Below, in pieces: positions 9,450 to 35,840 of a DNA stretch of 64,000 bases. The notes beneath the pieces were generated by a model, which was not told where the DNA came from, did no database searches, and saw nothing but the letters and a program-made list of their open reading frames with translations. The position numbers and the translations under genes are program-made. Each line of letters starts with the position of its first letter. Positions within the stretch are counted from its first letter, which is position 1. The stretch lies in contig CAYUKO010000001.1 of the NCBI GenBank assembly GCA_964445375.1, positions 9,302 through 73,301 on the forward strand, given 5' to 3'. This stretch comes from an uncultured Roseburia sp. (lineage in GTDB: Bacteria > Bacillota > Clostridia > Lachnospirales > Lachnospiraceae).

Positions 9450-9450
9450 C

Positions 9451-13871: not shown

Positions 13872-13884
13872 TTTTAACTCTCTC

Positions 13885-14298
13885 TTACTTTTTCAAATTT
13901 TTCGCAACCTCAAGGTATGTATCATAATCCCTGATATATTCATTCGCATCATAATGCTCACTCGCAAGTACAAGCAATACTGAGTCTTCTGAAAAGTCAT
14001 ACATATCCTTCCACACCAATTTAGGAAGATAGATTCCAATATGTGGTCTGTCTAAATCAAATATCTTCTGATTTGTTCCGTCATCTACCTTCACCTTAGA
14101 GGTTCCGGCTACGTTAATCAAGACAAACTCTGAATTATAGTTGGCATGTCTGCCACGTATAACATCTTTATCTGAGCCATAGATATAGAAAACTCTCTTT
14201 ATATCAAACGGAATATCCTGATTCCCCTCTACAATGACAAGATGTCCACGCTCATCACCTCTTTGAGGGAATTCTATTAATTTACATTCTTCTATCAT
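13885..14298 (-). CDS. fdtA: dTDP-4-keto-6-deoxyhexose 3,4-ketoisomerase (FdtA/QdtA cupin)
   Basis: DERGHLV, IPFDIKRVFYIY, RGRHA, VLLVLASEHYDANEYIRDY. Confidence 0.92.
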   Translation of the reverse strand: MIEECKLIEFPQRGDERGHLVIVEGNQDIPFDIKRVFYIYGSDKDVIRGRHANYNSEFVLINVAGTSKVKVDDGTNQKIFDLDRPHIGIYLPKLVWKDMYDFSEDSVLLVLASEHYDANEYIRDYDTYLEVAKNLKK

Positions 14299-14322
14299 TA
14301 TTTGTTACCCCTTTCGTAGTTA

Positions 14323-15417
14323 TCATAAAAACGCATTCAGCTTCTCAATGACGTAATCCTGCTCTTCCCATGTCATACCTGTGTAAAGTGGCAGGCTCAA
14401 TACCTCGTTAGCGTACTGTTCTGTGATTGGATATTCTCCCACTTTATGTCCAAGATGTTGATAACAATCTGCCAGATGCGGTGGTATCGGATAATGAATC
14501 TGTGTCTGGATTCCCTGTTCTTCCAGATATTTCTGAAGTTTCTCACGTTCTGCACAACGAATGACATACTGATGGAATATACTATCTGCGCCCTGTCTGA
14601 TTTCCGGCTTTATAATTTTGGCATTGGTAATTCCCTTTGTATAACGTTCTCCCAATACCTTTCGCTCATCATTTAATTCCTTGATATGCGCCAGCTTTAC
14701 TCGTAACAATGCCGCCTGCATTTCATCCAGTCTGGAATTGATTCCTTCAATCTCATTATGATATTTGATTTTGCTTCCATAGTTACGCATCATACGAATC
14801 TTGTCCGCAAAGTCCTTATCATCTGTTACAATAGCACCTGCATCACCGAATGCTCCCAGATTCTTGGTTGGATAAAAGCTAAAGCAGCCTGAGATTCCAA
14901 AAGTTCCTGTCATTTTCCCTTCAAAGCATGCACCATGAGACTGTGCACAATCTTCAATAATAGGAAGGTTGTGTTTCTTTGCAATCTCGACAATATGATC
15001 CATATTGCTTGCCTGACCATACAGATGGACTACCATAATCGCCTTTGTTTTGTCAGTAATCGCTGCTTCGATTCTATCTGCATCTATATTAAAATACTCG
15101 TCTGGTTCAACAAAAACAGGCGTTGCACCATTTTCTGTAATCCCAAGTACAGTTGCAATATAAGTGTTTGCCTGAACGATAACTTCATCGCCCTCGCCAA
15201 TTCCGAGTGCTCGCACGGACATAATTAACGCATCCAGACCCGAGTTTAATCCCACACAATATTTTCTTCCTGTAAAAGCTGCAAATTCCTCTTCAAACTG
15301 CTTTACTTCGTTACCAAGTACATACCAGCCGGAACGCAGTACCCGAAGCGCTGCATCCTCATATTCCTGCTGGTACATCTGAAATTGTCTGTCTAAAACA
15401 TTACATTTTATCTGCAT
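14323..15417 (-). CDS. fdtB: dTDP-3-amino-3,6-dideoxyhexose aminotransferase (FdtB/QdtB, DegT family)
   Basis: [49 protein letters not shown]; adjacent to fdtA. Confidence 0.92.
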
Positions 15418-19552: not shown

Positions 19553-20725
19553 TCATTCTCTATGCTTTCCTAACAATGTTTTTACTTGCCAAAAATATCC
19601 TTCCGGCTCCTGTCGTTCTGCAAATGGCTGATACCAGTAATATCCCATACATACCAGAAGATAATTTCTAAGTAAATAAACGGAAACAAAATGTGCCTCC
19701 ATCAGGTTATAAATCGAAAATGCCACAATCATAACCAGTAACACATAATCCTTATGTTTCCAGCTCTGCCAGATTAGATACAGATGCATAAGTCCATACA
19801 GTATTCCAGGTATAATTCCATACCAGTAAAATGCTCTTACAAAGCCGGCATCAAAATACATCTCATTCTCAGGTGCCGCAAAAAGCTTCCAGTTCTGAAG
19901 TCTTGCAGCCTCGACCTCATAGCAACGTTCATATCGTCCATTTAATACTTTGTCCAACTTATACATAAAGGTACTACTGTCATTCCAACCATTTCCCATA
20001 TAAGCTCCAAGTATCGAAAAAGCAATACAAACAAGCACTACAAATGCTCCTGCAATGTAAACCCATGAGCTCTTTTGTAAAAGTGGGATATACCGAAGCA
20101 CTACTACTCCTAAAATCGTTACTGTTGCAAGCAGCATTCCCGTATTAGAATCTGACAACAGGTAAGTACCAATATTAATTATCATCAACAACAGATAATG
20201 ATACCACTTCATAGAATCCGCATATAGGTACATAGCAAGCGTGATAACCATCCAGATCATACAATGCAATGCATTTGGGTGACCCATTCCAAGCGTATAT
20301 CTTGTTTCAATGGCTTCTCTTCCATAATCTGCCGTAACAGATATTGCACCGTAAATTCCAGTCACCGATAACAAAATCAGTACTATACAGCCAATCATGG
20401 TTACATAGAAGATAACTTTGATATTCTTCTTGAGGGAAATGTTCTTGCAGGAAGCCACAAACACAACGGCACGTACTGCTTCATCCTTTTCATTGATGAA
20501 ATACGAACATGCTGCAAGCAATCCGACAATCAATATGCAACTCCATTCCTTCATGGAATATTTTGTTGTAATAATTTTGATTCCAAATAATAAAAAGGTA
20601 ATTCGAAACAACTGACTTTCACATGGATTGAGATATGCACTTTTGTCCACAATCACAATCACAAGTTCTATAAATAATGCTATCCAGAAGCATATCTCAC
20701 CTATTCTTTTTGCTTTCGCTTCCAT
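19553..20725 (-). CDS. wzy: Wzy-like polysaccharide polymerase
   Basis: About 10-11 TM segments, RYTLGMGHPNALH (streptococcal-type Wzy loop), SDSNTG, YFDAGFVR. Confidence 0.7.
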   Translation of the reverse strand: MEAKAKRIGEICFWIALFIELVIVIVDKSAYLNPCESQLFRITFLLFGIKIITTKYSMKEWSCILIVGLLAACSYFINEKDEAVRAVVFVASCKNISLKKNIKVIFYVTMIGCIVLILLSVTGIYGAISVTADYGREAIETRYTLGMGHPNALHCMIWMVITLAMYLYADSMKWYHYLLLMIINIGTYLLSDSNTGMLLATVTILGVVVLRYIPLLQKSSWVYIAGAFVVLVCIAFSILGAYMGNGWNDSSTFMYKLDKVLNGRYERCYEVEAARLQNWKLFAAPENEMYFDAGFVRAFYWYGIIPGILYGLMHLYLIWQSWKHKDYVLLVMIVAFSIYNLMEAHFVSVYLLRNYLLVCMGYYWYQPFAERQEPEGYFWQVKTLLGKHRE

Positions 20726-22449
20726 GCTAGTCCTCCCTTACTAAAGCCGTACCACATCACGATGCCTACTGAAATGACAGAAACCAGTTCTGCCACTCTC
20801 CAATACCAAGGCTCCAAAAACGCTACCTTAATATCACAATCCATACCCGCATCCAATTCTACGCTTACTACATTGTTCTGTCCGGCTGAAATCTCCATTG
20901 GAAGGCATGTACCGTCTGCCAATGTTGCCGTTGCCTGATAACCATCATAATACAAAAGAGGTAACTCTACGCATCCTGTATTCTCTTTGGTATTCTTACC
21001 ATGGAATTCTATGGTTGTTCCTGTCTTCGTATAATCAGACACTTCTATACCTTCTGTAATAGCAAGATTGTCCTTCGTTAAATCATCTAACACTGTATTA
21101 ACAAGTAAATATTCTTCTCCGGATGCAACAAAGCTATCCATATCGGCAGCAGAATGAATCTGGATACGCTCGCCACGATTGAACAGATCTACCATAAAAT
21201 ATCCTGCTGATGGGGACATCACAAGCATGACGCATGCTGCCAATACGACAGCTTTCTTCTGCCCATACTGCTTCCATATATAAGAAACAACTGCACACCA
21301 AAGTAATGCAAGCACTGCAGTCGCAACTCCGGTAAAACGCCATGGAAACTGAATCTTAACAATCACATACTGAAAAATCTTTGCAACTCTGCATAAAAAA
21401 TCCCATGGGAAATAAATCGTACTCATCCCCACCATTGCCAAACCAAACAAGGCAGCCGTCATTGCAATTCTTTGATTTCTCTTTTCCTCCTTTGTTCGAT
21501 AGCCAAGGAAAAACAAACCCAAAAACGCCGGTACAGCGAGTATAAGTCCAAGTCCTGCTCCCTGTGCAAAATCGCCCTGTGTTCCTGCACTCAAATCAAG
21601 ACTTTGTCCGATAGCATTATCAAACAAAGCAAATACCTGCGATAAAAATACACCCTGACGTTGAATCAGTATATCATTATTGCGAATACTGTTTATGTTG
21701 AATTCTCCACACAACATATAGTCCAGAAATGGCACTAAAAACCATGCACTTAAACCAACTGCAACAGCTACTGCCTTTCCCCCTGCAAGCAGGACTTCTT
21801 TACAGAACACTCGCTTACAGTAAAGAACAACAACTCCTACAAGTACCATGCATGCAATTTCCGCTGTCAGTATATGACTCTGTAAGATACATGCCATACT
21901 AACTCCTAGAATAATTGAACCTTTTTTCAGATTTTCCTTCTTTTTCTCCTCATCAAGCAGCAATACACATGCATAGATCAAAAGAGGCAGGAACATCATT
22001 CCCGTATATTCGCCTACTGCACCTCTCGTATAGAGATTGACAAGGTGATAGGCAGACATACTATATAAGAAACCTCCAAATACTCCTATATATTCGTTCT
22101 TGAAAATCTTGCCAAAGCTATAGCCTGCAATTGTTATCGTTGCTATATTGCAGATAATAACATAGCCTTTATAAGCATTTTGCAGGGAAAAGCCAAGCAG
22201 TCTTAAAATAGCTGCCAGATATACAAATAAATCGCCATAAAATACGGACACCGAATATCCATAATCATCATACCAAACCGGCTGAATCTTAACCGGGAAC
22301 TGTCCATTTCTCATCCCTTGTGCCAATCCTTCGATACGCATCAAATGAAAATAAATATCATGGCCACGAATGAGGAAGTCATTCATGACCGGAATAGATA
22401 CTGCTATGATAAAAATGATATATAATAAAATACACTTCTTGTTTTTCAT
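20701..22449 (-). CDS. YfhO/PTPS-related GT-C-type membrane glycosyltransferase
   Basis: GHDIYFHLMRIEGL, FYGDLF, NLYTRGAVGEY, QFPWRF, C-terminal extracellular domain with LPLLYYDGY. Confidence 0.75.
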   Translation of the reverse strand: MKNKKCILLYIIFIIAVSIPVMNDFLIRGHDIYFHLMRIEGLAQGMRNGQFPVKIQPVWYDDYGYSVSVFYGDLFVYLAAILRLLGFSLQNAYKGYVIICNIATITIAGYSFGKIFKNEYIGVFGGFLYSMSAYHLVNLYTRGAVGEYTGMMFLPLLIYACVLLLDEEKKKENLKKGSIILGVSMACILQSHILTAEIACMVLVGVVVLYCKRVFCKEVLLAGGKAVAVAVGLSAWFLVPFLDYMLCGEFNINSIRNNDILIQRQGVFLSQVFALFDNAIGQSLDLSAGTQGDFAQGAGLGLILAVPAFLGLFFLGYRTKEEKRNQRIAMTAALFGLAMVGMSTIYFPWDFLCRVAKIFQYVIVKIQFPWRFTGVATAVLALLWCAVVSYIWKQYGQKKAVVLAACVMLVMSPSAGYFMVDLFNRGERIQIHSAADMDSFVASGEEYLLVNTVLDDLTKDNLAITEGIEVSDYTKTGTTIEFHGKNTKENTGCVELPLLYYDGYQATATLADGTCLPMEISAGQNNVVSVELDAGMDCDIKVAFLEPWYWRVAELVSVISVGIVMWYGFSKGGLAWKRKQKE

Positions 22450-22461: not shown

Positions 22462-23418
22462 TTATTGTTTTCTCATGCGCTGGATTCTGGCATTTACAAA
22501 GCATTTTACTGTTTCCTTCTGCTCTGCAAACCACTTCTTCCAATACATTCCGCTGTCAATTCCAAGTGTCTTTGCTTCCTGTAATCCCTTGTGATACTTA
22601 ATCACAAACTGCTCCGTAAAATAGGCTCTACAATTTGCACTCTCCTGCAAATGATACTTTGTATACATATAACGATAATCGTTATAAATACGCATGTCCT
22701 TCTCTGCAAAGGTTTCTGTATACTGATTCTCATGAACACCAACGCAAATAAGCGGTTGGGTAGTATATGCAAACTTTTCGCTCTTTCTAAGCAGTTCAAA
22801 ATACAAAAACATGTCCGATGCCCAATTACTCTTCTCATCAAAAAGGGAAAGTTCCTTGCCCCTTCGATAAATACTCGCACTTGGCGTTCCTATCTCATTG
22901 CCAAGGAACAGATTTCGATAATCCTGTTCCAGTCTGGTGATAAATTCTGCCGATGCATGACGATCATAAGAGTCCTTTACATTCTCTTTGGTAAGATGCT
23001 TTACCCCTTCTGCATCAGAACCAGCCAGCATGACCTGTCTGCTGCCGCAAAATGCAAGCATAGCATCCGGATTCTCGTCCAGCATAGCAACAAATGCGCC
23101 AAGACTCTTACTATCCGTAAACCAGTCATCACTGAACATGATCTTAATATACTCTCCGGTTGCCATCTTAACAGCAGCATTCCAGTTGATAATATGCCCT
23201 AATCGCTTTTCATTATGAACATATCGGATTTGTTCTGTGCCATACTGTTTCTGATAGCCCTTTACCACCATTGCAATTTCTTCATTCGTGGAGTCATCTG
23301 ATATATTTATTTCAAAATCTTTGTATTCCTGCTCATATATGGACTCTAACAAATGCTTCACCTCATCTGCATTGTTGTATGACGGAATACATATTGATAC
23401 CTTTGGCATGTTTCTCAT
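22462..23418 (-). CDS. GT2 glycosyltransferase
   Basis: KVSICIPSYN, ISDDS, MFSDDW, ASDMFLY; ATGA overlap with the upstream stop. Confidence 0.88.
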   Translation of the reverse strand: MRNMPKVSICIPSYNNADEVKHLLESIYEQEYKDFEINISDDSTNEEIAMVVKGYQKQYGTEQIRYVHNEKRLGHIINWNAAVKMATGEYIKIMFSDDWFTDSKSLGAFVAMLDENPDAMLAFCGSRQVMLAGSDAEGVKHLTKENVKDSYDRHASAEFITRLEQDYRNLFLGNEIGTPSASIYRRGKELSLFDEKSNWASDMFLYFELLRKSEKFAYTTQPLICVGVHENQYTETFAEKDMRIYNDYRYMYTKYHLQESANCRAYFTEQFVIKYHKGLQEAKTLGIDSGMYWKKWFAEQKETVKCFVNARIQRMRKQ

Positions 23419-24242
23419 CCTTTTAGCTTATTCATTACGCGGTATACCAATTTTCCAAGCTTACTTCTGCGCCATTTCAATTCCTTTAACGATTCCACAT
23501 TCATTCTATGAGAGTCAATAATCTGTGGAAATGTACTTCTTTCTTCCACATCTTTCTCATAATGATTTACTAATCCGAACTGCGATGGATCTCGAAAACG
23601 CTTTAGCTTGTACTTTTTTATCATCAATGACCATACTGCCTGATCATGTCTGTGTACTACAAAATCATCATAATCAGGCTGCCCTAATGTATTTTCCTTC
23701 TCAGTTATGATTCTTGGATCCTGCGCATATTCCAGGTCTTCCCTTAAAAACTTTTCCACAAAAGGAGACTTTTTCATGACTACATATCCACCAATTGACT
23801 GTGGTGTATCGGTATATTCTGTGGAATCACATCCCATCAGAATAAGAGCATCTCTTTTATTGTATTTTCTCTCCAGCATCTCAAGTTCAAGCGAAAATAC
23901 CATCAAATCAACCTGTTCCTTTTCCATACAGTCAATCAGATATTGAATCTTATTCACATACACGGAACCTGCATCCGTATAAATAAGGTAATCGCCTTCC
24001 TTCAATTCCTGATATGCTTTATTTAGGAAATAAGGTTTCCAGAGATAATAGCCATTGCCCTTCTTAGCCGATAAAATCTCTTTATTCTTCTCCTTAAATT
24101 CCTCATCCATATCCTTTGGCGTATAACCGATTACCTTATCTGCACCCCATTGAAGAGCCGTTTCCAGATTCAGCTTCTGTGCTTTTTGAAAGCCTTCATT
24201 TGCATAGTTAATTGCAATAATCATTCTTCTATCCTCTGCCAA
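23415..24242 (-). CDS. Uncharacterised GT-A-like protein (GYxxWKP...DAG...HRHDQ family)
   Basis: KGNGYYLWKPY, LIYTDAG (DxD-like), HRHDQAVWS motifs; glycosyltransferase context. Confidence 0.6.
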   Translation of the reverse strand: MAEDRRMIIAINYANEGFQKAQKLNLETALQWGADKVIGYTPKDMDEEFKEKNKEILSAKKGNGYYLWKPYFLNKAYQELKEGDYLIYTDAGSVYVNKIQYLIDCMEKEQVDLMVFSLELEMLERKYNKRDALILMGCDSTEYTDTPQSIGGYVVMKKSPFVEKFLREDLEYAQDPRIITEKENTLGQPDYDDFVVHRHDQAVWSLMIKKYKLKRFRDPSQFGLVNHYEKDVEERSTFPQIIDSHRMNVESLKELKWRRSKLGKLVYRVMNKLKG

Positions 24243-25182
24243 TCAGCTTTTTAACCAGTCTCTTTAGCCCAACCTCAACCTGATAACACACATTCTTACA
24301 CGTTACCTTGATGTGTCTCAATGTCTTCTCGACTGGCTTTTCTTCTTGCATAATCAGATAAGAAAGCTCTTTCTGATTCTCTCTGATATAAACCGGGAAA
24401 CTCTCATCTATCTCACAACGAATGAACTTTGCATCCCTTCCGAAGATATCCTTACCATCCTTAATCTGGTCTGTTACATTGGACAAGACATGCCTGGAAT
24501 TATACTCCTGATGCGCAGCAGAAATTACCTTCTCTTGCACACGCTTCTTGATATCCTTTTCTCCTTTGCCACCCATGTAGCCAAAGTGCCAGCCGCCGTC
24601 TTCCACACGAATACCGATTTCCTTACGCTCAGGGAAACGAAGTTCTCCAAGCTGTAAGTTCTGCTCACGAAGAAGCTTATAGCTGCACATCTTCGTTCCT
24701 ATCCACTTCTTTCGCTCTACACCTTCAAATTCCCCTGCATAAGACAAAAGATTGCCAGATACTTCTTCCATATTGAGATAACAGTAGAATAAACGCTGCG
24801 CAAAATGATAAATCTTATCCTCTTGAAAATCCTTTAAAATTTCTTTGATTTTCTCTGGATTTGGGATTTCGTCTAAATCACTGAAAATGATAATATCATC
24901 ATCCGTACAGTCCTTTAATCCTCTTGTTACCGCATTTTTCTGGAATGTATCGCGGTCATGGGTATCGCCTTGTGGTGTATCATCCACAACGACATGAATA
25001 ATCTTGTCGGCAAATTCTGCAAACATTTCCTTATTTTCTTCATAATAAAGAGGCTTCTTAAGTCCTGAAAAAGTCTCTGTTGCCTCGCTGATAACGAACT
25101 TATCAACAATAGGACTCATAACATGAAGCCTGATTTTAAGCATATCTAATTCATTAAAAAATTGAAAACAATCGTATACCAT
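24229..25182 (-). CDS. GT17-like (MGAT3/beta-1,4-GlcNAc-transferase-like) glycosyltransferase
   Basis: YDCFQFFNELDMLKIRL, FVISEATETFSG, FSDLDEIP, GGWHFGY. Confidence 0.82.
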   Translation of the reverse strand: MVYDCFQFFNELDMLKIRLHVMSPIVDKFVISEATETFSGLKKPLYYEENKEMFAEFADKIIHVVVDDTPQGDTHDRDTFQKNAVTRGLKDCTDDDIIIFSDLDEIPNPEKIKEILKDFQEDKIYHFAQRLFYCYLNMEEVSGNLLSYAGEFEGVERKKWIGTKMCSYKLLREQNLQLGELRFPERKEIGIRVEDGGWHFGYMGGKGEKDIKKRVQEKVISAAHQEYNSRHVLSNVTDQIKDGKDIFGRDAKFIRCEIDESFPVYIRENQKELSYLIMQEEKPVEKTLRHIKVTCKNVCYQVEVGLKRLVKKLIGRG

Positions 25183-25186
25183 CTGA

Positions 25187-25942
25187 TTATCCCCTTCGTA
25201 ATATTTTCCTTGCGACTGCTTTACAGCGCTCCTTTATGGTCGGTTTGATAAAATTCGGATACTGTGCATTGGTTCCTTCCCATTTATGAAAAGCAAACGG
25301 AGTAATTCCCTGCACTTCGGGGATCATCTGCTCATGGCTGTAATACTTTGCTATTTCAAGTGGAGCAATCTGCATTCCTTCTGCTTCTAACAAGTGTCTT
25401 ATCTTGCAGCAGATAAATCCGTCCTCATAGAACCACATCTTTCCATAGGCATATTCTCCCTCCCATGGAACATTCGCAATTTTGGGAAAATCCATCAAGC
25501 GCTTACTACGAATTCCCGCGCTGTTTCCAACACGGCAGATATTTCCATGGATATCACGATAAGTCGTGGTATCTCCATCCTTTGGCAACGGCCATGGTGC
25601 GCCAATGTAATCATAGTCTAAGAACTCATCCCGCCACATTTCCGGATGCACAACAAAACCATCTGCATGAACAATCAAAGCATAATCGGTCTTGATATGA
25701 TCTCCTAGTTCATATACCATTTTGTAATTAAAATCATCTATGTTCGTCAGCTTACTTGTATGACTGTAACGTATGGACTTTGGCAAGCCAAAAGGCTTCT
25801 TATGTGTAATCAATACGGCATCACCAAAATCAATGCCACGCATGCTGTATTCCATTGCCTGAATCGTTGCCTTTACATTCACACTTGTCATTGCTACAAG
25901 TGTTACCTGTGGAAGCTGTAGTTTTTGTTTATTTTCTTTCAT
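25187..25942 (-). CDS. DUF5672-family GT-A-like protein
   Basis: LIVHADGFV, FLDYDYIGAPWP, VGNS...RSKRL, EDGFIC, PFAFH. Confidence 0.78.
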   Translation of the reverse strand: MKENKQKLQLPQVTLVAMTSVNVKATIQAMEYSMRGIDFGDAVLITHKKPFGLPKSIRYSHTSKLTNIDDFNYKMVYELGDHIKTDYALIVHADGFVVHPEMWRDEFLDYDYIGAPWPLPKDGDTTTYRDIHGNICRVGNSAGIRSKRLMDFPKIANVPWEGEYAYGKMWFYEDGFICCKIRHLLEAEGMQIAPLEIAKYYSHEQMIPEVQGITPFAFHKWEGTNAQYPNFIKPTIKERCKAVARKILRRG

Positions 25943-25972
25943 CCTACTAATTTATCCTTTAAATTTATATCT

Positions 25973-27559
25973 CTATTCTGCTAAATCAACATTCATTTGT
26001 TCTATGATACACTCGTGTTTCTTCGCATCTTTATCATAGTTAATACCTACTAAGAGTAAATTGCCCTTATATTCCAAAAGACTCTCTGTATATTTCTTAT
26101 CCTTTATCTGGGCAATTGCTCCCTGCACACTCTTATCATATTTTAATTCTATTACCATTGCAGGCTTATCTGCTGCTTTTGCTTTCGGGATAAATACAAT
26201 ATCAGCATAGCCTTTTCCTGTGGGCAGTTCACGAAATACAGAATAATACTCTCTTGCTGCATAAAATGCCAGTGAAATCGTATAACTGAGTGCATTCTCA
26301 TCATTATATGTCAAAATAGAAGTCTCATAATGTGCCTTTTCCACACCCTTTGCAACCGCATTGGCATCCATTGCCCATGCGCTCTTCAACAAAGCTTCCG
26401 ATTCCTTTACGGAACGGATGATTTCTCCCCATGAAGTATTCCTGATTGCTGTAATAAACTCTTTCGAAATCTCTTTATTCGGAATATAGACTTCTTCCTT
26501 TTCCCAATCATAGGCAAGGTAGCCCAAATGAACAAGCAAGGTCAGAACATCTTCATAATTATGGAATGTTGTCATATCGTTGACAAAGCTTCTTACATCA
26601 ATCTGTACATGTTCTCCTGCAAGCATTCGTATGATAGCATCCTTCAATCCATCATAATTCATATCAATATATGTTCGTAATGCTTCAAATGTCTCGGTCT
26701 GATTCCAGTAAGTATCAAAAGCATTCGCAAGCATTGCCCCCACAACTGACCTCGGATTATAAATGGATGCAACCTTCCCCAGATGATAACCATCATACCA
26801 AGTCTTTGTATCTTCAAAGCTCATTTCATATCGCTCGCACAACCCTTTTACTTCCTTTTCATTGAAGCCAAAATATCCGGCAAGCTGTCCTGCATTTGTC
26901 ATAGAGTATTCCGTAAACATATTCAATGCAGAATGTGTTCCATATTTCTTGATTGGCAGGATTCCTGTCATATAGGCAAGAGAGATGTATTCTTTATCTT
27001 TAAGCCAATTACGCAGAAAATCAAGATATTTTCCCTGTTCTTCCTTTTTGTCCTTGTATTCTCGGAAGATGCAGTCCCATTCGTCTACTAATATAACAAA
27101 ATATCTTTCATTTCTTCTATAAACATCCTGCATAACCCAAGACAACGAACTTTCATTTGTCTCATCTACGATATCCGGATATTTCTCTTTGAATTCTTTT
27201 ATCACTCTTATTTCGAGCTGTTTTAACAATTCCTCAGAAGAATACGTTCTTCCAATGAATTCCGTCATATTAATACGAATCACATCATATTGATTCAAAT
27301 GCTTCTTATAGCTCTTAGCCTTGCCAATTTCCAAATCTTTAAATAACTGATCCGAATCACTTTCTGCGTTATAATAAGCTGACAGCATTTTAATAGCCAT
27401 CGACTTACCAAATCTTCTCGGTCGGCTGACACAGACAAATCTTTGTTCTGTATTTATCAAACGGTTCAACTGCTCGATAAGTCCTGTTTTGTCAACATAT
27501 ATCTCTGAATTAAGACTGTCTTGAAAACCTTTTGTCGTTGGATTTAAATAATATCCCAT
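25973..27559 (-). CDS. Predicted AAA-ATPase with C-terminal PD-(D/E)XK nuclease domain
   Basis: YVDKT, SRPRRFGKS (Walker A), VILVDEWD (Walker B), YNPRSV, C-terminal RELPTGKGYADIV...VIELKY...QI...Y. Confidence 0.9.
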   Translation of the reverse strand: MGYYLNPTTKGFQDSLNSEIYVDKTGLIEQLNRLINTEQRFVCVSRPRRFGKSMAIKMLSAYYNAESDSDQLFKDLEIGKAKSYKKHLNQYDVIRINMTEFIGRTYSSEELLKQLEIRVIKEFKEKYPDIVDETNESSLSWVMQDVYRRNERYFVILVDEWDCIFREYKDKKEEQGKYLDFLRNWLKDKEYISLAYMTGILPIKKYGTHSALNMFTEYSMTNAGQLAGYFGFNEKEVKGLCERYEMSFEDTKTWYDGYHLGKVASIYNPRSVVGAMLANAFDTYWNQTETFEALRTYIDMNYDGLKDAIIRMLAGEHVQIDVRSFVNDMTTFHNYEDVLTLLVHLGYLAYDWEKEEVYIPNKEISKEFITAIRNTSWGEIIRSVKESEALLKSAWAMDANAVAKGVEKAHYETSILTYNDENALSYTISLAFYAAREYYSVFRELPTGKGYADIVFIPKAKAADKPAMVIELKYDKSVQGAIAQIKDKKYTESLLEYKGNLLLVGINYDKDAKKHECIIEQMNVDLAE

Positions 27560-27578
27560 AGTCTGTGTCTCCTCCCTG

Positions 27579-28601
27579 TTATATTCCCATTCTACGCTTT
27601 AACGAACGTAACATTCTGAAAAATAAATCCTGATAAATCAAATACTTTGCATGGAGTCTTGCCGTTGCTAGCTGTGCTCCCTGCAATTTCTTCCCAATTT
27701 CTTTGTATCTCTTAGAATTCTTCTTATATTCTTCCAGTTCCTTGCGGCATTCCTGTGCCGTAAAGAGCTTTCCCTTTCTGTCCATATAGACAAAATCAGA
27801 ATAAATATTCTGCTCCGATGCCCAATAGCCATCGGACACATTATGTCTTGCCCAATACTTCGGTGCAATGACATACTTTACGGTCTCACTGGTAAAGGCC
27901 GGGAAAAATGCAAACGTGGAATTCGATAAAATAAGATACTGTGCATTCTTAATTGCCGTATAATCTCCTGCTAAATCAAAATGAAAAGCCGGAACCTCCG
28001 GTAGAATTCTTCTTGCTGCTTCTATGTCGTCTGTCACTACCATAAATTCCATGTCCGAGCGCTTGTTTTTCATGACTTTCATGGCATCCAGCCAGTATTT
28101 TCTTCTTAAGAACAGCTCAGGGTTGCTAGTGTATTCACCTCCACGGATGTTGATAATACACAGATTCTCTCTGGAATACTTATAATCATCATATTCCGGC
28201 TTTACCTTCATCCAATTCCTAATCTCTTCTCTATACTTTACAAAATAAGACTCATCCTGAAGATTACCATATACAAGTGTCGTTTCATCCAATTCAAAGA
28301 GCTTCTCATCTGCTCCCGTAATATAACAGCCATGTTCGATATCATGCTTGGAATTACCTAAAAAGATTCTGTCCTCTCTCTCCTGATAAACTTTCTTAAA
28401 ATCCTCTTTTGTAAGGTCTAATCCACAATCTAAGTCCATGAAATACATACCCTTATTACTATGGATGTTATTGGCAAGGATTTCACGGTTTAAGATGCTA
28501 AAATCCCATCCCTTTTCCAATGCCAGACATCTGGTCGCAATATAACAGAACAGCTGATTTCCCAGTCCCTGTCCTTTTAATAATTCGGTTGCCAATATCA
28601 T
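27579..28601 (-). CDS. Divergent GT11-like glycosyltransferase
   Basis: GQGLGNQL, YGNLQDESYF, INIRGGEY, VVTDD, LSNSTFAFF, APKYW. Confidence 0.8.
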   Translation of the reverse strand: MILATELLKGQGLGNQLFCYIATRCLALEKGWDFSILNREILANNIHSNKGMYFMDLDCGLDLTKEDFKKVYQEREDRIFLGNSKHDIEHGCYITGADEKLFELDETTLVYGNLQDESYFVKYREEIRNWMKVKPEYDDYKYSRENLCIINIRGGEYTSNPELFLRRKYWLDAMKVMKNKRSDMEFMVVTDDIEAARRILPEVPAFHFDLAGDYTAIKNAQYLILSNSTFAFFPAFTSETVKYVIAPKYWARHNVSDGYWASEQNIYSDFVYMDRKGKLFTAQECRKELEEYKKNSKRYKEIGKKLQGAQLATARLHAKYLIYQDLFFRMLRSLKRRMGI

Positions 28602-28618
28602 TTTTCAACCCTTCTTCT

Positions 28619-29524
28619 CTATTCTCCGACTTTTTCTGTTACTTTAGATAATTTTTGATATATTTCATCAACAATACTCTTATCGATTTTTTCATCAAAT
28701 TTTCTTGCAAACATTTCATCTGCGTGTAAAATTTCATCTAAGTCTTCACTTCGAAATACATAAGGTGTTCCTCGTTTCCAATCAATATAACGCATACATG
28801 CTTTATAGTTATCTTCGAAGTCTGATATATACAAATTATTCTTATATGGTGAATCCATAATCATTGTTTGCCATATTAATTCATCACTAATTTGAGTCAA
28901 ACGAAAAGCTTTGCTATATTTCTTCCACTTACAAACAACATACTGCGCGAACTGTTCTGTAATACTACACCAGTTTGCACCTCCGTAAAATTCAAAAGAA
29001 ACATTTCTAGTTCGATCAATGTTGAGTCTTCTTTGAATTGCAAGAGAATATGTTTCTAAATTGCGCCAAAACGGATCACGTTTTCTACCAAGTTGTTTCG
29101 AAAAGAAATGATAGGAAACATATCTACATGCTATATCCTGCTGGTACTGCTTTGTTCCAAAATGGATAAATTCCTTTCCTTGATTTGCATCAAAGAACTC
29201 ATGAATTTCTTGCTGTGTTTTTATTGGTAAATCTGCACCTGACAAAAAGTGGTAATAAGCATATTTACTCGTATTGACTGCCATTTTCAACAATTCAATT
29301 TCTGCTAATGAGATACTATTAGTTCCCCAAAATACCTTATATTTTTTTAGAATAACCACTTTCGACTTTTTTGCCCATCTTCTTATCTCCTCAACATTAA
29401 CAAATTTACTATTCTTATCAACATGAATAAATATATCATTATATTCATAATCCAATAATTGAATTAATCGTTTTAAAACAAATGTATTTTCATGAATTAA
29501 TAGCAAATAAGCATGTTTTAACAT
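28619..29524 (-). CDS. GT14 (core-2/I-branching beta-1,6-GlcNAc-transferase-like) glycosyltransferase
   Basis: HAYLLLIH, IFIHVDK, HFLSGADLPIK, GANWCSIT, SDEL, RYIDW, FARKFD. Confidence 0.87.
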   Translation of the reverse strand: MLKHAYLLLIHENTFVLKRLIQLLDYEYNDIFIHVDKNSKFVNVEEIRRWAKKSKVVILKKYKVFWGTNSISLAEIELLKMAVNTSKYAYYHFLSGADLPIKTQQEIHEFFDANQGKEFIHFGTKQYQQDIACRYVSYHFFSKQLGRKRDPFWRNLETYSLAIQRRLNIDRTRNVSFEFYGGANWCSITEQFAQYVVCKWKKYSKAFRLTQISDELIWQTMIMDSPYKNNLYISDFEDNYKACMRYIDWKRGTPYVFRSEDLDEILHADEMFARKFDEKIDKSIVDEIYQKLSKVTEKVGE

Positions 29525-29551: not shown

Positions 29552-31297
29552 TTAATGTAATGAAGTTTGTTCAATTTTTCCATCTTCCACTTTATAAATA
29601 ATATCACACTTTTCAATGGTATTAAGTCTATGCGCAATGATGACCATCGTCTTCTTGCCATGGAAGCTGTTGATTGCTTCCATAACAGCCTGCTCTGTTT
29701 CATTATCCAGTGCAGAGGTTGCTTCATCAAATACCAAAATCTCCGGGTTATGATAGAGCGCTCTTGCAATACCAAGTCGCTGTCTCTGACCACCCGAAAG
29801 TCTGACACCCCTGTCACCGATTGTTGTATCCAAGCCTTCCGGCAAAGTCTTAATAAAGTCTTTTAACTGTGCTTCCTCTAATACCTGCCAGATTCTTTCA
29901 TCATCGATTTCTTCATCTGCAATACCAAAAGCAATGTTATTTCTAATTGGTTCATCCACCAGATAAATAGCCTGTGGAATATAGCCTATCTGTGCAAGCC
30001 ATGCCGGATAGTTATCAAAGATATTCACACCATCACAGGTAATCGAACCCTCATGAACTCTCAATAATCCAAGTAAGATATCAACAATCGTGGATTTACC
30101 TGCACCGGATGGTCCCATAATACCAACCGACTTACCATAAGGCACTTCCATATGTGCATGGTCAAAAATCAGCTTGTCTGTATTTGGATAAGCATACACA
30201 ATATTCTTTAACTCAATCTTATCTCTTAGTTTAATCTCTACTGTAGAATCCTTAGATAACAAGTTCGGATTTGTTTTCTCGCTTATTGCATTAATATTCA
30301 TATTCTCATATACATAATCCAGACATGGCTTTTGGTACGCAATCTCTGTCATATACGTATTGATTCTGTTTGCACTAGGCATTAATCGCATCGCTGCCAA
30401 CGCAAATACAGATAATAATGGAATCATTTCCATAACATCATTTCCTGCCAGAATATATACGATCAAATAGCAAATAAAACTTGTCATAAATAAGGTTTCA
30501 ATCATTAATCTTGGCACATTATTCATAACAGAATATCTTCTTGCATAGCCGGCTCCAACTTTACCGGTATTCTCATAATTATCTGCAAAAAAAGCTTCCC
30601 TGTGAAGAACCTTTACATCCTTAATACCATAAATAGCCTGAATTCTCCACTTTGCAATTCTTGACTGAATTGCCTGATTCTTACTGCCAAGCTTTGATAA
30701 TCTTGGTTTCAATACCTTTAACATAAGTAAAGTAACGAATCCTAATACAACTACTACAAATAAGGTCATCTTCCAATCTGTTGCTATTAGAACACAGCTT
30801 AACAGTACAAATACTACCGATTCCGATACTAAGGAAATGATTGCCATAATCATATTAAATACATTCGGAATGTCACTGTCTGTCAAACGAAAAACGGTTG
30901 GAATATCTGCATCCAGATAGAATTCATACGGTCTGTTTAAAAACTCGCGAAGAACTCTGCTGATTAACTGATTTCGATTCGTACAAATAAAACGGTTCTG
31001 TTCATTTACCAGCACTAATAAGTAAAGATTCTTAATGATGTACATTACAATTAATAGAACTAGCAATGGTATCACCAAGTCCTGTGCGTCCTCAATATGC
31101 AGGAAATTCATTACTTTTTGTCCATACTTATTCTGGGCTATGGCATCCGGGCTAAGAATTGCCATAACAACAGGAAGCATTGCAGAAACACTTAATGTCT
31201 CCAATAATCCTCCAATAAAAATCATAACACCCAGAACTCCAATTTGTTTCTTCTGACTCTTATTCAAAATGTAGTTCAATTTTTTTAAGATTTCCAT
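29552..31297 (-). CDS. ABC transporter permease/ATPase, PglK/WlaB/HetA-like flippase
   Basis: Six-TM N-terminal domain, GPSGAGKST, LSGGQRQR, LVFDEATSALD, IAHRL. Confidence 0.92.
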   Translation of the reverse strand: MEILKKLNYILNKSQKKQIGVLGVMIFIGGLLETLSVSAMLPVVMAILSPDAIAQNKYGQKVMNFLHIEDAQDLVIPLLVLLIVMYIIKNLYLLVLVNEQNRFICTNRNQLISRVLREFLNRPYEFYLDADIPTVFRLTDSDIPNVFNMIMAIISLVSESVVFVLLSCVLIATDWKMTLFVVVVLGFVTLLMLKVLKPRLSKLGSKNQAIQSRIAKWRIQAIYGIKDVKVLHREAFFADNYENTGKVGAGYARRYSVMNNVPRLMIETLFMTSFICYLIVYILAGNDVMEMIPLLSVFALAAMRLMPSANRINTYMTEIAYQKPCLDYVYENMNINAISEKTNPNLLSKDSTVEIKLRDKIELKNIVYAYPNTDKLIFDHAHMEVPYGKSVGIMGPSGAGKSTIVDILLGLLRVHEGSITCDGVNIFDNYPAWLAQIGYIPQAIYLVDEPIRNNIAFGIADEEIDDERIWQVLEEAQLKDFIKTLPEGLDTTIGDRGVRLSGGQRQRLGIARALYHNPEILVFDEATSALDNETEQAVMEAINSFHGKKTMVIIAHRLNTIEKCDIIYKVEDGKIEQTSLH

Positions 31298-31321: not shown

Positions 31322-32386
31322 CTACCTGAAAATACTTTCGTAATCGTAATTCAGATAATATTCCTTCTCTATTTCTAAACGCTCCAAATAATTATCTTTG
31401 GTTACAAGTCCATCTTCAGAAGCCATCCACTCTAAAATCTTAGAATTAATTTCTGCCGAATAATGCTCCTTGTCACGATAATTATCGGTATTTGTAATCA
31501 CATCGTACTTTTCATAGAAGTTAAACAGTTTTACATTCGGACACTCAAGAAGCAACTCTGTTGCAATCTGTTCTGCTTCAAACTGCATCTTCATCATGCC
31601 TTCCTGATTTAAAAAATCCCAGTAACAAATGCTATATGGTGTATAAAAAATGTAAAAAGTCGTATCCGGATACTGATTAACCAAATCAACAAAGTTCTCT
31701 TTGATATTAGCAGTAACCATCTCTCTTTCTTCTTCCGTGAGACCTTCTATCATGTCTGCTTTCTCTTCCCACCGGTCATAGCTTTGCATGATAAATGCAA
31801 GACCTGTCTCTTTATCCCAGGAAGAGTATTCATCCATAGTCGTACTAGACCGTCCTAATAATGTCTTTCCCACATTCGGTAATACGCCATGATACATAAT
31901 AGACTTATTGAACACATATGATACGTCGTTCCATGGATTCTCATCATATAAATATGTTGGATATCCTTCATATTGTGTCCAGTCTTTCTCTCTTATAAAT
32001 GCATTGTAGTCCATGGTCCAAATCACCGTTTTGAGATTCTCATTACGCTGCAATGCTCTCTCCAGATTCTCCGACAGCTCCTTGTAACCTGCTCCTGAAA
32101 AAGTCTCTTTCACGGACTGCGTTCCAAATAATGTATCTATTTCACTCGTCTTAAAGTTCTGTGCCATAGATGTTCCTGTCACAATGGCATCGTAATCAAA
32201 ATGCCTTGATATCCCATCATTTGTATATCGCTCATCATACAGCCTATACGATACAAATGAAAACGGCTTGTGAAAATGGAAATACGGATCAAACACATAC
32301 ACGACAGCAAATATAAGAAAAATTGTTCCAAACAGACATATTATGCACTTTTTAAACCATTTCTTTGATTGATTATTCTCTTTCAC
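31322..32386 (-). CDS. Membrane-anchored SGNH/DltD/AlgJ-like protein, partner of MBOAT
   Basis: N-terminal TM, IVTGTSM (block I Ser), YRDKEHY (DxxH); GTG start; downstream of an MBOAT. Confidence 0.72.
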   Translation of the reverse strand: MKENNQSKKWFKKCIICLFGTIFLIFAVVYVFDPYFHFHKPFSFVSYRLYDERYTNDGISRHFDYDAIVTGTSMAQNFKTSEIDTLFGTQSVKETFSGAGYKELSENLERALQRNENLKTVIWTMDYNAFIREKDWTQYEGYPTYLYDENPWNDVSYVFNKSIMYHGVLPNVGKTLLGRSSTTMDEYSSWDKETGLAFIMQSYDRWEEKADMIEGLTEEEREMVTANIKENFVDLVNQYPDTTFYIFYTPYSICYWDFLNQEGMMKMQFEAEQIATELLLECPNVKLFNFYEKYDVITNTDNYRDKEHYSAEINSKILEWMASEDGLVTKDNYLERLEIEKEYYLNYDYESIFR

Positions 32387-32436
32387 TTTCTAAATCCCTT
32401 GCTAGAAATGTAACCATTCAATACCTTCATAGTTAC

Positions 32437-33906
32437 CTAGAAATTAACATATAAAAACTCACTTACTTCCGATAGTGACAAAATACTCCATACCATAAGC
32501 AGTACAATAACGAAAATTCTGCCATTGGTGAATCGCATCTCCTTCACCTTTTCCTGCGTGTTCTTCATAAAGAAGCATGCAAGAAGCAAAACAATGACAA
32601 ATAGAATCAGAAGCATTCCCGGATAAGAAGTAATCACACCACTAAGTCCCAATCTATATAACAGCTTTATCTCTGTCATATCGTTAAATACTTCTGTGAT
32701 TGGTGCATAAATCGCTCCCCAATCTGCCACAAAGAACCTGCTCCATAAGTTTCTTGCCTGCTCCACGGAATCTGCCCTGAATAAGCTCCACGCAAAAGAA
32801 GCAAATACAAACGTTCCTGCAACACGAATCCCCTTTGGAATCCTGGCTAATACTGTCTTAACCGGTTTCCAGCGTTCTATGATATTCAATACTCCATGCA
32901 TAGCGCCCCATAAAAGAAAGCTCCAGTTTGCTCCATGCCAGAAGCCACTCACCAGAAATACAATCATGACATTGAGATATGTTCTGGCTGCGCCTTTTCT
33001 GTTTCCACCCAAAGGGATATAGACATATTTTGTAAAAAAGCGCGTTAATGTCATGTGCCATCTTGACCAGAAATCAATAATGGACTGCGCCTTATATGGT
33101 GAATTAAAATTAACAGGTAATTCGATGTTAAAGAAATATCCAACACCCGATGCCATATCGCAATAACCACTAAAATCAAAATAAATCTGTAGCGAATAGC
33201 AAATCATAACAAGTAATGTACTTGGTATATTTAACTCATGAATGCTGCCATAACCAATCGTAACAACCTTAGAAAGCGTATCTGCAAGCAGTACCTTCTT
33301 GGCAAGACCTAATGCAAATGCATAGATTCCCTTTGCTAAATTATCATAATTTAGTCTTTTATTCTCAATCTTGCGAAACTGTGGTATCAGCTCATGATGA
33401 TACGTAATCGGTCCCTGAATCAGCTTTGGAAAAAAGGTTACATATGCCGTATATTCCAAGAACCCGTATTTCTCGCAATCTCCTTTGTAATAGTCAATGA
33501 CATAAGACAATTGCTGGAATGTATAAAAGCTGATTCCTAACGGCAGAATCAATTCCAGCAGTGCAATATCCGTTTTGAATACCACATTCACATTTTCCAA
33601 AAAGAAATTGAAATACTTAAAATAAAGCAAAGCTCCTATATTCCATACCAAACCTGCCAGGAAAAGGCTTTTACGTCCAAGTTCTCCCTTAGCCCTTGAC
33701 ATTGCCTCAATCAATATATAATTTATCAGAATGCTAATCAGCAGTATCAACAGATAACTTGGATTCATATACCCGCAGAACCACATGGACATACCTGTTA
33801 AAAACGCCAACGCAAGCTTATACTGTTTCAAATAATTCAGTCCATAGTACCCAAACAATACCAATGGCAAAAACAAAAAGATAAAGATATAAGAATTAAA
33901 AAGCAT
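32437..33906 (-). CDS. MBOAT O-acyltransferase (AlgI/PatA/DltB-like)
   Basis: MLFNS, LPLGISFYTFQQ, YFDFSGYCDMA, FWSRWHMTL, VSGFWHGA. Confidence 0.93.
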   Translation of the reverse strand: MLFNSYIFIFLFLPLVLFGYYGLNYLKQYKLALAFLTGMSMWFCGYMNPSYLLILLISILINYILIEAMSRAKGELGRKSLFLAGLVWNIGALLYFKYFNFFLENVNVVFKTDIALLELILPLGISFYTFQQLSYVIDYYKGDCEKYGFLEYTAYVTFFPKLIQGPITYHHELIPQFRKIENKRLNYDNLAKGIYAFALGLAKKVLLADTLSKVVTIGYGSIHELNIPSTLLVMICYSLQIYFDFSGYCDMASGVGYFFNIELPVNFNSPYKAQSIIDFWSRWHMTLTRFFTKYVYIPLGGNRKGAARTYLNVMIVFLVSGFWHGANWSFLLWGAMHGVLNIIERWKPVKTVLARIPKGIRVAGTFVFASFAWSLFRADSVEQARNLWSRFFVADWGAIYAPITEVFNDMTEIKLLYRLGLSGVITSYPGMLLILFVIVLLLACFFMKNTQEKVKEMRFTNGRIFVIVLLMVWSILSLSEVSEFLYVNF

Positions 33907-33921: not shown

Positions 33922-34944
33922 CTAGCTTCTACTCCTCAAGGGAATGATTACCTTTTCATATCCCTTTGTTATGCAACTGTAAAGCTCCGGACTTGCCAAT
34001 GCAAGCTTCATTCTGGCACGGTCACCTGCTGCTATAAAATCATTGTTGTATATTCTTTGAATCTCCTGCCGGTTACTCTTTAATTCCTCTGCAATCCTTC
34101 TTGCATAGTCACCACGTACCTGCTTTGATTCCTTCTTCCAATCCATATAGTAGAATAACAGCCTTCGATAATAATGATATGCCGCAAAATCTCCCATCTT
34201 TTCTGAAACATGCTCTCTGATATAAGCAATATGTTCCCTCCAGAAAGGAAGCTCATCCTGAAACATTCGCTCGCCACGCTTTACATTCATAATGCTTCCA
34301 TCACGGTCCAGCACATAATCATACAGACAACTGTCGATGTAAACGCCTCTGTCAGCCTTACAAAAAGCCTTCGTCGTATACATGATATCTTCAGAGTTTC
34401 TACCTGTCGGGAACGGTACACCATCTACGATTTCTCTTGCAAAGAGCTTGCTCCATACCGAATTATAGATAATATAATCATCATGACCGCCAATATAGAT
34501 CTTAAGAAGCTCTTCCCTGTCAAAAGCAGTCACTTTGTCATTTCCGCCTTGTATCGTATGGTCCTTATATACCTGTGCATATCGACAGACTGCAACCTGC
34601 GCATCATGTTCCACACATGCCTGATACATCTTCTCATACATATCCGGTTCAATCCAGTCATCACTGTCTACATATCCGATATATGCTCCGCTTGCAATGG
34701 CAAGTCCTGCATTTCTGGCATCTGACAGTCCACCATTTTGTTTATGAACAACCTTGATTCTGCTGTCTTTTCTCGCATACTCATCGCACATCTGTGAAGA
34801 CTTGTCCGTAGAACCATCATCTACTAAAATAATTTCCAGATTCGTATAGGTCTGCTGCCATATGGAATTCATACAACGTTCCAAATACTGCTCCATGTTA
34901 TAAACAGGAACAATAATGGATATTACATCCTTCTGCTGTGTCAT
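33922..34944 (-). CDS. GT2 glycosyltransferase (EpsJ-like)
   Basis: ISIIVPVYN, LVDDGSTD, NGGLSDARNAG, YVDSDDW; TAATG coupling to the upstream stop. Confidence 0.92.
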   Translation of the reverse strand: MTQQKDVISIIVPVYNMEQYLERCMNSIWQQTYTNLEIILVDDGSTDKSSQMCDEYARKDSRIKVVHKQNGGLSDARNAGLAIASGAYIGYVDSDDWIEPDMYEKMYQACVEHDAQVAVCRYAQVYKDHTIQGGNDKVTAFDREELLKIYIGGHDDYIIYNSVWSKLFAREIVDGVPFPTGRNSEDIMYTTKAFCKADRGVYIDSCLYDYVLDRDGSIMNVKRGERMFQDELPFWREHIAYIREHVSEKMGDFAAYHYYRRLLFYYMDWKKESKQVRGDYARRIAEELKSNRQEIQRIYNNDFIAAGDRARMKLALASPELYSCITKGYEKVIIPLRSRS

Positions 34945-35840
34945 TAACAAATATTTCCTTCTGCATCTATTAATATCCAGCCTGGCCAGTTTTCATGCAT
35001 CTGGTCTGCTGTTATCGTCTCATAGTTATCATGTTTCAGAGGGCGGATCATAAGCTTATCTGTATTCTGATTCAGTCTGGCGCCCCAGAAGCTAAAGGTC
35101 GAATTCGCACAAATATTATGCTTACACTGGCTCATCAGCTGCATATCAAAGAGGCTGTCCTCTCCCGTATTCCAATCTACAATACGGATATCCGCTCCCT
35201 GATAATGCGCTCTTACATATTCCACATCATCGGAAAAGATATAAAAGACTGGATTTTCCACCTGCTCTCTTATATACTGCATTGCTTTCTCATAATACGT
35301 ATCCGTACAGATTCCCATATAACGTTTTCCATCTGCCACGGACAGATAATCCGTTCTGCGGATATGAACACTGACTGCCTGTTCCTGTTTCATCTGCTCC
35401 ATACAGGCATAATTCTTAGGATTTGTACTTTGTGGAAATACCAGCTTTCTTTGAAGATTCTCTATTCTGTCCACATAATACCTCTCGCAGTCCCAGAACC
35501 CATACAGATAAACGTTATCTTGGCAAAAAAGTTCAGGCATATACTTTCCGTCATCCTTTAAGGTCTTATCCTGTCTGCCCAAAAGCTTTCTCCTGAGTCT
35601 GTCTGAAAAAGCCATGCTGTTATCCAGCAGTTTCGTTCTTTCTTCTTTCGTACAGACTTCGTATTCCAGATTTTCAAAACGGGTAAGCTCTAGGCTTCGC
35701 CATTCTTTCTCTTCTCCTGCTTCTTCTGTATATGCATGGAAATCCAGCTTTACTGCTTTCCCCATGCTCTTTAATTTCTCATACATCGCATACTGGTACA
35801 GTTGGTTTCCAAGTCCTCCCATAACATGTATGATTATCAT
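34944..35840 (-). CDS. GT11 alpha-1,2-fucosyltransferase-like glycosyltransferase
   Basis: GGLGNQLYQYA, GFWDCERYY, VHIRRTDY, FSDD, DMQLMSQCKHNICANSTFSFWGA. Confidence 0.92.
   Translation of the reverse strand: MIIIHVMGGLGNQLYQYAMYEKLKSMGKAVKLDFHAYTEEAGEEKEWRSLELTRFENLEYEVCTKEERTKLLDNSMAFSDRLRRKLLGRQDKTLKDDGKYMPELFCQDNVYLYGFWDCERYYVDRIENLQRKLVFPQSTNPKNYACMEQMKQEQAVSVHIRRTDYLSVADGKRYMGICTDTYYEKAMQYIREQVENPVFYIFSDDVEYVRAHYQGADIRIVDWNTGEDSLFDMQLMSQCKHNICANSTFSFWGARLNQNTDKLMIRPLKHDNYETITADQMHENWPGWILIDAEGNIC

Follow-up and report, generated by a model that had tools for sequence, protein, structure and literature searches.

In the PglK/Wzk pathways, known from the pgl system of Campylobacter jejuni and the O-antigen pathway of Helicobacter pylori, soluble glycosyltransferases (GTs) act before the glycan is flipped by a single-polypeptide ATP-binding cassette (ABC) exporter, and a membrane protein of the Wzy_C/WaaL superfamily acts downstream. 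Gram-positive cocci have wall-polysaccharide loci (Enterococcus Epa, Lactococcus cwps, streptococcal RGP) in which a conserved core is combined with a variable region. Here we describe a gene module of Lachnospiraceae which resembles both and belongs to neither. It was found in a 64 kb stretch of contig CAYUKO010000001.1 from an uncultured Roseburia sp. (referred to as the window), where a cassette of GT genes is located at positions 22462–29524. We consider this cassette to be, with fair probability, the central part of an operon building a lipid-linked oligosaccharide, from which an envelope glycan arises that has a conserved core and is decorated differently from strain to strain.

The entire window is one co-directional polysaccharide super-locus, and all window coordinates given below refer to the minus strand. 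ORF (open reading frame) calls placed seven co-directional frames in the cassette. In the order of transcription, they encode a GT14 protein (Core-2/I-branching family, 28619–29524), a divergent and fucosyltransferase-like protein of the GT11 superfamily with a predicted GT-B fold (GT11-like, 27579–28601), a 528-residue protein which is not a GT and combines an AAA-ATPase_like with a PDDEXK_9 domain (25973–27559; Pfam scores 108.7 and 40.4 bits), a DUF5672 protein with predicted GT-A fold (25187–25942), a GT17 protein (24229–25182), an unclassified GT-A-like protein which contains the motif HRHDQ and is designated accordingly (ORF 23415–24242; no Pfam match) and a GT2 protein, GT2b (22462–23418; Pfam GT2 85.8 bits). 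The gaps between the genes range from −4 to +30 nucleotides, and the original prediction was thus correct in calling them tightly coupled. Its ABC-flippase context is borne out by a half-transporter gene (29552–31297) directly upstream of the cassette; the protein has a transmembrane and a nucleotide-binding domain (Pfam ABC_membrane and ABC_tran). Promoter-like sites in the cassette interior did not exceed the expectation from shuffled sequence. The terminator-like matches obtained in the cassette are mostly inside coding sequence and look spurious.

Pfam analysis confirmed four of the proposed family assignments, namely GT14, GT17, DUF5672 and GT2, while the proposed GT11 is a divergent relative and not a canonical member. 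The description of the cassette as consisting of GTs was incomplete, as it had overlooked the ATPase-nuclease ORF, which makes up 22% of the span. For six of the seven cassette proteins no NCBIfam model was found.

For comparative analysis, genomes were scanned at one genome per species. This yielded 80 loci with GT17, and every protein of the window was compared with these loci by tblastn. Nearly all are from Lachnospiraceae, and they originate from goat, deer, mouse, chicken, rabbit and human guts; isolates among them are COE1, A4, Kineothrix alysoides and Lachnoclostridium sp. Marseille-P6806. At 93% identity, a metagenome-assembled Lachnospiraceae genome from goat rectum is the nearest. 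The window sequence itself is present in sheep, goat and bovine gut metagenomes, and the presumed origin from a gut commensal is in line with all these sources. Counts were made over 50 full loci, which extend at least 8 kb to each side of GT17.

DUF5672 is present in 48 of these 50 loci, GT2b in 46, GT11-like in 43 and the ABC exporter in 37. Three genes outside the cassette are retained to a similar extent. A gene for a Wzy/WaaL-like protein (19553–20725), downstream of the cassette, was found in 42 loci, and two upstream GT genes, GT2a (33922–34950; Pfam GT2 134.9 bits) and GT11a (34944–35840; a canonical GT11 with 96.9 bits and the motif HIRRTDY), in 44 and 38, respectively. The order of these genes is conserved, with 52–94% identity over dozens of species from several genera. 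The gene directly upstream of GT17 is DUF5672 in 35 loci, and GT2b, which is the normal downstream neighbour of GT17, directly follows it in 34. The ABC exporter, GT11-like, DUF5672, GT17, GT2b and the Wzy-like protein, together with GT2a and GT11a upstream, therefore form a core with Lachnospiraceae-wide synteny. The cassette is not a chance pattern, because the same gene set is syntenic in dozens of genomes. Not all of its genes belong to the recurring module, however: HRHDQ occurs in nine of the 50 loci, GT14 in five and the AAA-ATPase gene in two. Among the isolates, A4 combines the core with both GT14 and HRHDQ, COE1 has HRHDQ in addition to the core but lacks GT14, and K. alysoides KNHs209 and Lachnoclostridium sp. 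Marseille-P6806 carry the core alone. The expectation that the cassette genes co-occur thus held for GT11-like, DUF5672 and GT2b and failed for GT14, HRHDQ and the AAA-ATPase gene. In several distant loci, the Wzy-like gene is immediately followed by a gene for a small polyprenyl-phosphate sugar-phosphate transferase, with which the module becomes self-contained as a pathway.

Locus L071 (contig CAZUQT010000011.1) is labelled Elusimicrobiaceae and contains a Lachnospiraceae-type module with DUF5672, GT11-like and a GT17 of 57% identity. This points to misbinning or horizontal transfer.

Core genes are also joined to each other or to further GT genes by in-frame fusions free of internal stop codons. 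Fusions of GT2b with the Wzy-like protein were found in six species, fusions of the Wzy-like protein with a GT4 in seven, and fusions of GT2a with GT11a, in either order, in 11; GT11-like–GT4 and GT2–DUF5672 fusions occur in other species. Examples are located in L074 (6998–9079 and 11946–14165), L076 (11857–14121), L038, L071 and others. Apparent GT17–GT2b fusions in L064, L069, L076 and L079 were rejected, as each contains an internal stop. The fusion of a cytoplasmic GT to a polytopic Wzy-like domain suggests that the Wzy-like membrane protein scaffolds a GT complex.

These data bear on an alternative reading, namely that this is an ordinary capsule or exopolysaccharide locus, specific to the strain, and that its mixture of GT families reflects serotype variation and nothing more. 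Such a locus would fit the surroundings, a super-locus encoding Wzx, Wzy-like proteins, numerous GT2 and GT4 enzymes and proteins for the modification of sugars, and it would fit the variation of some cassette genes between strains and species. Unlike serotype-specific GTs, however, the core has kept its order and its level of identity over dozens of species, and the fusions show a long-term functional linkage. We therefore regard a mere serotype locus as very unlikely. The accessory genes are located in fixed slots between the core genes, and elsewhere these slots are filled by LtaS-like proteins of the sulfatase family, DUF6056, DUF6020/PMT_2-like GT-C proteins, DUF3431 or a second ATPase-nuclease.

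Contigs from bovine-gut metatranscriptomes cover most of the cassette. One of them spans the HRHDQ/GT17/DUF5672 junctions, and one has a junction lacking GT14. These contigs are consistent with co-transcription in vivo.

The exporter has 581 residues. Its best NCBIfam model is PglK, aligned over positions 1–558 of 558, and among half-transporters in PDB the structure of PglK (5c73) is the best match (residues 4–577 to 2–562, E-value 6.5e-84). By analogy, the ABC protein is a candidate PglK/Wzk-like flippase of a lipid-linked oligosaccharide. The Wzy/WaaL-like protein is a candidate polymerase or ligase; sub-threshold similarity to Wzy_C was found in 7 of 20 family members (best E-value 5.5e-4). 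A search of PDB sequences gave no relative for this protein, nor for GT11-like, GT17 and the HRHDQ family. Between GT2b and the Wzy-like gene is an accessory gene for a PTPS_related protein (20701–22449; Pfam 31.8 bits), present in 10 of the 50 loci. It has about 11 hydrophobic segments and is a GT-C-like candidate for extracytoplasmic glycosylation. Hydropathy analysis showed the ABC, Wzy-like and PTPS_related proteins to be polytopic and detected no hydrophobic segment in any of the six cassette GTs, which are thus predicted to be soluble cytoplasmic enzymes.

Between the exporter gene and GT2a, an MBOAT acyltransferase (32437–33906; Pfam 114.5 bits) is encoded next to a partner protein with one hydrophobic segment and no Pfam match (31322–32386); the pair (31322–33906) co-occurs in 16–18 of the 50 loci. 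A second MBOAT with partner is located at 5514–8437, this partner being weakly DUF1574/GDSL-like. Both are probably pairs for glycan O-acylation.

From this gene content we infer the following pathway. At the cytoplasmic face, the soluble enzymes GT2a, GT11a, GT11-like, DUF5672, GT17 and GT2b would extend a primer sugar by sugar, the lipid carrier presumably being undecaprenyl-(pyro)phosphate. In this strain, GT14 and the GT-A enzyme HRHDQ may also act on the primer. The completed unit would then be flipped by the PglK-like half-transporter and, outside the membrane, be polymerized or ligated to an acceptor by the Wzy/WaaL-like protein. There, the GT-C-type enzymes (PTPS_related, PMT_2) and the MBOAT acyltransferases may decorate the glycan, and accessory enzymes would make this decoration differ from one species or strain to another. 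What the data show directly is the gene content with its family and fold assignments, the synteny, the division into core and accessory genes, the fusions, the loss of GT14 in some strains and transcription in vivo. The lipid carrier, the flipping, the order of the steps and the attachment target of the glycan are proposed, as is every sugar and linkage mentioned in the following.

Similarity to the PglK/Wzk pathways goes beyond a single-polypeptide exporter closest to PglK, soluble GTs acting before the proposed flipping and a downstream membrane protein of the Wzy_C/WaaL superfamily: a small PglC-type initiating transferase and PglF/PglE-like enzymes are encoded elsewhere in the window. However, the host of the module is a Gram-positive-type Lachnospiraceae, PglB is absent, the exporter scores far below the PglK equivalog cut-off, and GT17, DUF5672, the divergent GT11 and GT14 have no counterpart in these pathways. 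With the loci of Gram-positive cocci the module shares a conserved, syntenic core including an ABC exporter and slots in which accessory GTs, GT-C proteins and LtaS-like transferases are swapped. It differs from them in that it has no rhamnose synthesis genes or rhamnan, in its GT families, in the lack of an LCP ligase in the window and in having a PglK-type half-transporter instead of an ABC-2 Wzm/Wzt pair.

The super-locus contains the genes for several other activities. Upstream of the cassette are a PglF/PglE/PglC-like trio, an ATP-grasp protein, TviB/TviC-like enzymes and two AsnB-type amidotransferases, and also several GT4 enzymes, an 875-residue Wzy_C protein, a PMT_2 GT-C, the canonical GT11, the GT2 and the MBOAT with its partner. 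Downstream are the PTPS_related and Wzy-like genes, more GT2 and GT4 genes, a set of FdtA, DegT and acyltransferase genes, Wzx, another GT11 and another MBOAT. The stretch 43117–61109 comprises the PglF-, PglE/LegC- and PglC-like genes, ATP-grasp, TviB/TviC-like genes, one AsnB and the Wzy_C protein; the second AsnB gene is located just downstream of it (37482–39365). The chemistry implied, by analogy, is that of a bacillosamine-like sugar and an amidated GalNAcA, reminiscent of pgl-type loci, where the TviB/TviC-like enzymes would make UDP-GalNAcA. The genes at 11274–15417, which code for an FdtA isomerase, a DegT aminotransferase, a GNAT/FemAB-like acyltransferase and a Wzx flippase, are predicted to form a 3-acylamido-3,6-dideoxyhexose branch with a second, Wzx-dependent export route.

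The presence of the PglF/PglE/PglC-like trio and of the 875-residue Wzy_C protein in the same window raises a further alternative, in which the module serves general protein O-glycosylation. In this case the glycan would be assembled on a lipid carrier and moved across the membrane by the PglK-like exporter. An oligosaccharyltransferase of the Wzy_C type would then attach it to a surface protein such as an S-layer protein or flagellin, a role for which the weakly Wzy_C-similar membrane protein of the module would come into question. But the Wzy_C matches, being weak or sub-threshold, cannot separate a polymerase from a ligase or an oligosaccharyltransferase, and a gene for an acceptor protein was not identified in the window. 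The data do not distinguish a protein from a wall or lipid acceptor. We consider protein O-glycosylation unlikely, though less so than a serotype locus.

Several observations weigh against the assembly of a lipid-linked oligosaccharide for an envelope glycan as the function of the module. The PglK score of the exporter, 364 bits, is far below the equivalog cut-off of 1000, so that its flippase specificity is an analogy. The Wzy-like protein scores 16.2 bits with Pfam Wzy_C, below the cut-off of 31.7, and no LCP-type wall ligase was found in the window. At least one further pathway is encoded in the window, with Wzx and other Wzy-like proteins, so that assigning one initiating transferase to the module in this genome would be ambiguous. 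Co-occurrence was counted solely in genomes picked for having GT17, and contigs from RNA runs may include contaminating DNA. Finally, the bacterial GT17, DUF5672 and HRHDQ proteins are not known to include a biochemically characterized member.

A different question is the structure of the product. The original prediction was a branched, fucosylated oligosaccharide similar to mucin or milk glycans, and it is based solely on the names of animal members of the GT families. If the glycan did carry an α1,2-fucose added by GT11-type enzymes, as in the H antigen, and a β1,6-GlcNAc branch added by GT14, the organism would display a surface glycan like mucin O-glycans or milk oligosaccharides. Such mimicry concerns the product and could coexist with the assembly on a lipid carrier proposed above; if true, it would matter more.

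The family membership of GT14 is solid, as judged from its sequence. It scores 70.6 bits with Pfam Branch (PF02485; cut-off 23.4) and covers profile positions 2–232 of 250. The family profile matches human XylT1 (6ej7, E-value 6e-18) and mouse C2GnT (3otk, 2e-13) in PDB. Residues E215 (in ISDE) and K275 (in ARKF), which are invariant in a small family alignment, are matched with chain indices 283 and 364 of 3otk. Allowing for the construct offset, we take these to be the catalytic base Glu320 and the leaving-group residue Lys401 of C2GnT. The conservation of this Glu/Lys pair in a full-length alignment is in favour of mimicry, as is the gut habitat. However, family membership fixes neither donor, acceptor nor linkage, and GT14 is missing from 45 of the 50 loci and from co-occurring strains. 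In two of the ruminant-gut metagenomes there are contigs on which 28599 is directly followed by 29592, or 28574 by 29586, which omits exactly GT14. Further contigs from one of these two metagenomes contain GT14 with zero mismatch. GT14 is therefore a presence/absence polymorphism within the ruminant-gut population. Its GC content is 0.30 (0.225 at third codon positions), while that of the neighbouring genes is 36–42%. Because of this anomalous GC content and its precise absence in co-occurring strains, GT14 appears to be a decoration gene which was acquired recently and can be dispensed with.

For the fucose residue, the evidence is divided between two types of GT11. Canonical GT11 proteins flank the cassette, and GT11a, just upstream and conserved with the module, has the motif expected: H[IV]RRxDY is found in 32 of 34 members of its family. 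It shares the motif HxRRxDY and a strong Pfam score with the bacterial α1,2-fucosyltransferases FutC of H. pylori and WbwK, WbsJ and WbiQ of E. coli (PMC4202792). Characterized bacterial GT11 enzymes make the H antigen, except that HhFT2 is an α1,3-fucosyltransferase (PMC4202792). The GT11-like protein inside the cassette departs from these enzymes. Only its C-terminal part matches Pfam Glyco_transf_11 (28.4 bits, cut-off 23.9; profile positions 109–282), and close homologues in other loci have a weak GT11 score or none. The hhalign comparison with the GT11a family was significant for the C-terminal domain only (probability 99.2, E-value 1e-19) and left the N-terminal domain unmatched. Motif I reads NIRGGEY, the canonical HxRRxD[YF] being absent; across the family it has the form N[IVLM]RGGEY in 40 of 57 members and HLRC[ST]DY in 15. 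By its sequence, GT11-like would be a true but divergent member of the GT11 superfamily, whose sugar donor is not fixed by this assignment. In addition, gmd and fcl genes for GDP-fucose synthesis are absent from the window, where the SDR enzymes score well below the model cut-offs. They could be located elsewhere in the genome.

GT17 matches Pfam PF04724 with 86.2 bits (cut-off 26) over profile positions 75–204 of 348 only. A motif SD[LVA]DE is present in all 80 sequences examined (79 locus homologues and the window protein). Among the best 120 of 6662 homologues, which are 84–100% identical, all have PF04724 and are named only ‘glycosyltransferase [Lachnospiraceae bacterium]’. The N-glycan core, the acceptor of animal GT17, is absent here. 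According to the review by Brockhausen (PMC4202792), bacterial GT17 proteins are uncharacterized and a bacterial MGAT equivalent is not known.

The Golgi enzymes C2GnT/IGnT, FUT1/2 and MGAT3 share their catalytic-domain families (GT14, GT11 and GT17) with the cassette proteins according to Pfam. The animal enzymes are type II membrane proteins, whereas the bacterial ones have no signal-anchor or other hydrophobic segment. The partial GT17 profile match sets the bacterial protein apart from MGAT3, and the lack of a canonical motif I sets GT11-like apart from FUT1/2. The acceptors must differ from those of the animal enzymes, being lipid-linked bacterial glycans. The sugars predicted from the neighbouring genes are typical of bacteria, namely a bacillosamine-like sugar, GalNAcA and a 3-amino-3,6-dideoxyhexose. 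Mimicry of host glycans thus appears quite improbable. The Lachnospiraceae-wide assembly core is the more solid and the more interesting result.

The two obscure proteins of the cassette had been proposed to be GT-A-like, and structure prediction agrees with this. DUF5672 scores 41.3 bits with its Pfam family (cut-off 24.4). In a Foldseek search of PDB, the top matches of its AlphaFold2 model (pLDDT 88.4) were all of the GT-A fold: CHSY3/CHPF, BoGT6a, GTB and glycogenin, with TM-scores of 0.45–0.5. The likeliest start of the HRHDQ gene is the ATG at 24224, giving a gene at 23415–24224 and a protein of 269 residues, as in databases. The HRHDQ model (pLDDT 86.6) matched XXYLT1, the GT domain of LH3, GTA/GTB, LARGE1 and glycogenin (TM-scores 0.4–0.5), and resembles retaining GT8/GT6 enzymes. 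The models support both proteins as GT-A-like at fold level, and nothing finer. None of 32 members of the HRHDQ family has a Pfam match. The family is large, with 5558 representative clusters at E ≤ 1e-3 and 862 at 1e-30; W62, Y82 and D84 are invariant, and D78, R192, D194 and Q195 nearly so.

DUF3431 proteins of about 280 residues fill differing variable slots of the module in many species (L011 11951–12793, L013 4009–4857, L044 7388–8194, L057 10960–11814, L072 10884–11693 and L041 4833–5678). Since they occur in the same loci and are of similar size, HRHDQ was considered as a diverged DUF3431 protein. This was rejected, as hhalign found the two families unrelated (probability 0.2).

The AAA-ATPase/PD-(D/E)XK gene is in line and co-oriented with the GT genes inside the operon. 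It is a lineage-specific insertion, which no genome other than the two nearest, L008 and L009 (7571–9142), has in the same slot. L008 has ATPase-nuclease genes at 6021–7592 and 8410–9987, as a second and different one is located between DUF5672 and GT17; such genes have entered the operon repeatedly. PADLOC made no defence-system assignment for the protein.

We found no description of the module in the literature on DUF5672, on bacterial GT17 and GT14 proteins or on wall-polysaccharide loci of Lachnospiraceae; the sole mention of DUF5672 concerns an unrelated topic. Surface glycans of Lachnospiraceae are almost unknown, with the exception of Ruminococcus gnavus (PMC12413058). A tentative and somewhat doubtful extension of our proposal is that the module makes a ‘Lachnospiraceae common glycan’, an envelope polymer that would characterize this family in the way in which teichoic acids or rhamnose polysaccharides characterize other Firmicutes. 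Its PglK-type export would be unusual for Gram-positive wall polymers. Differences between strains would come from swappable enzymes, namely GT14, HRHDQ-type GT-A, DUF3431, GT-C and LtaS-like proteins, with pressure from phages or immunity as the probable cause. Should this be true, bacterial GT17, DUF5672 and an unclassified GT-A family of more than 5000 clusters would receive their first functions. The module is a natural system in which to assign the activities of GT17, DUF5672 and HRHDQ. The combination of a core with variable accessory genes offers a genetic marker for ‘glycotypes’. Few groups of gut bacteria are as abundant as the Lachnospiraceae, and the module provides a handle on what they display to host immunity and phages.

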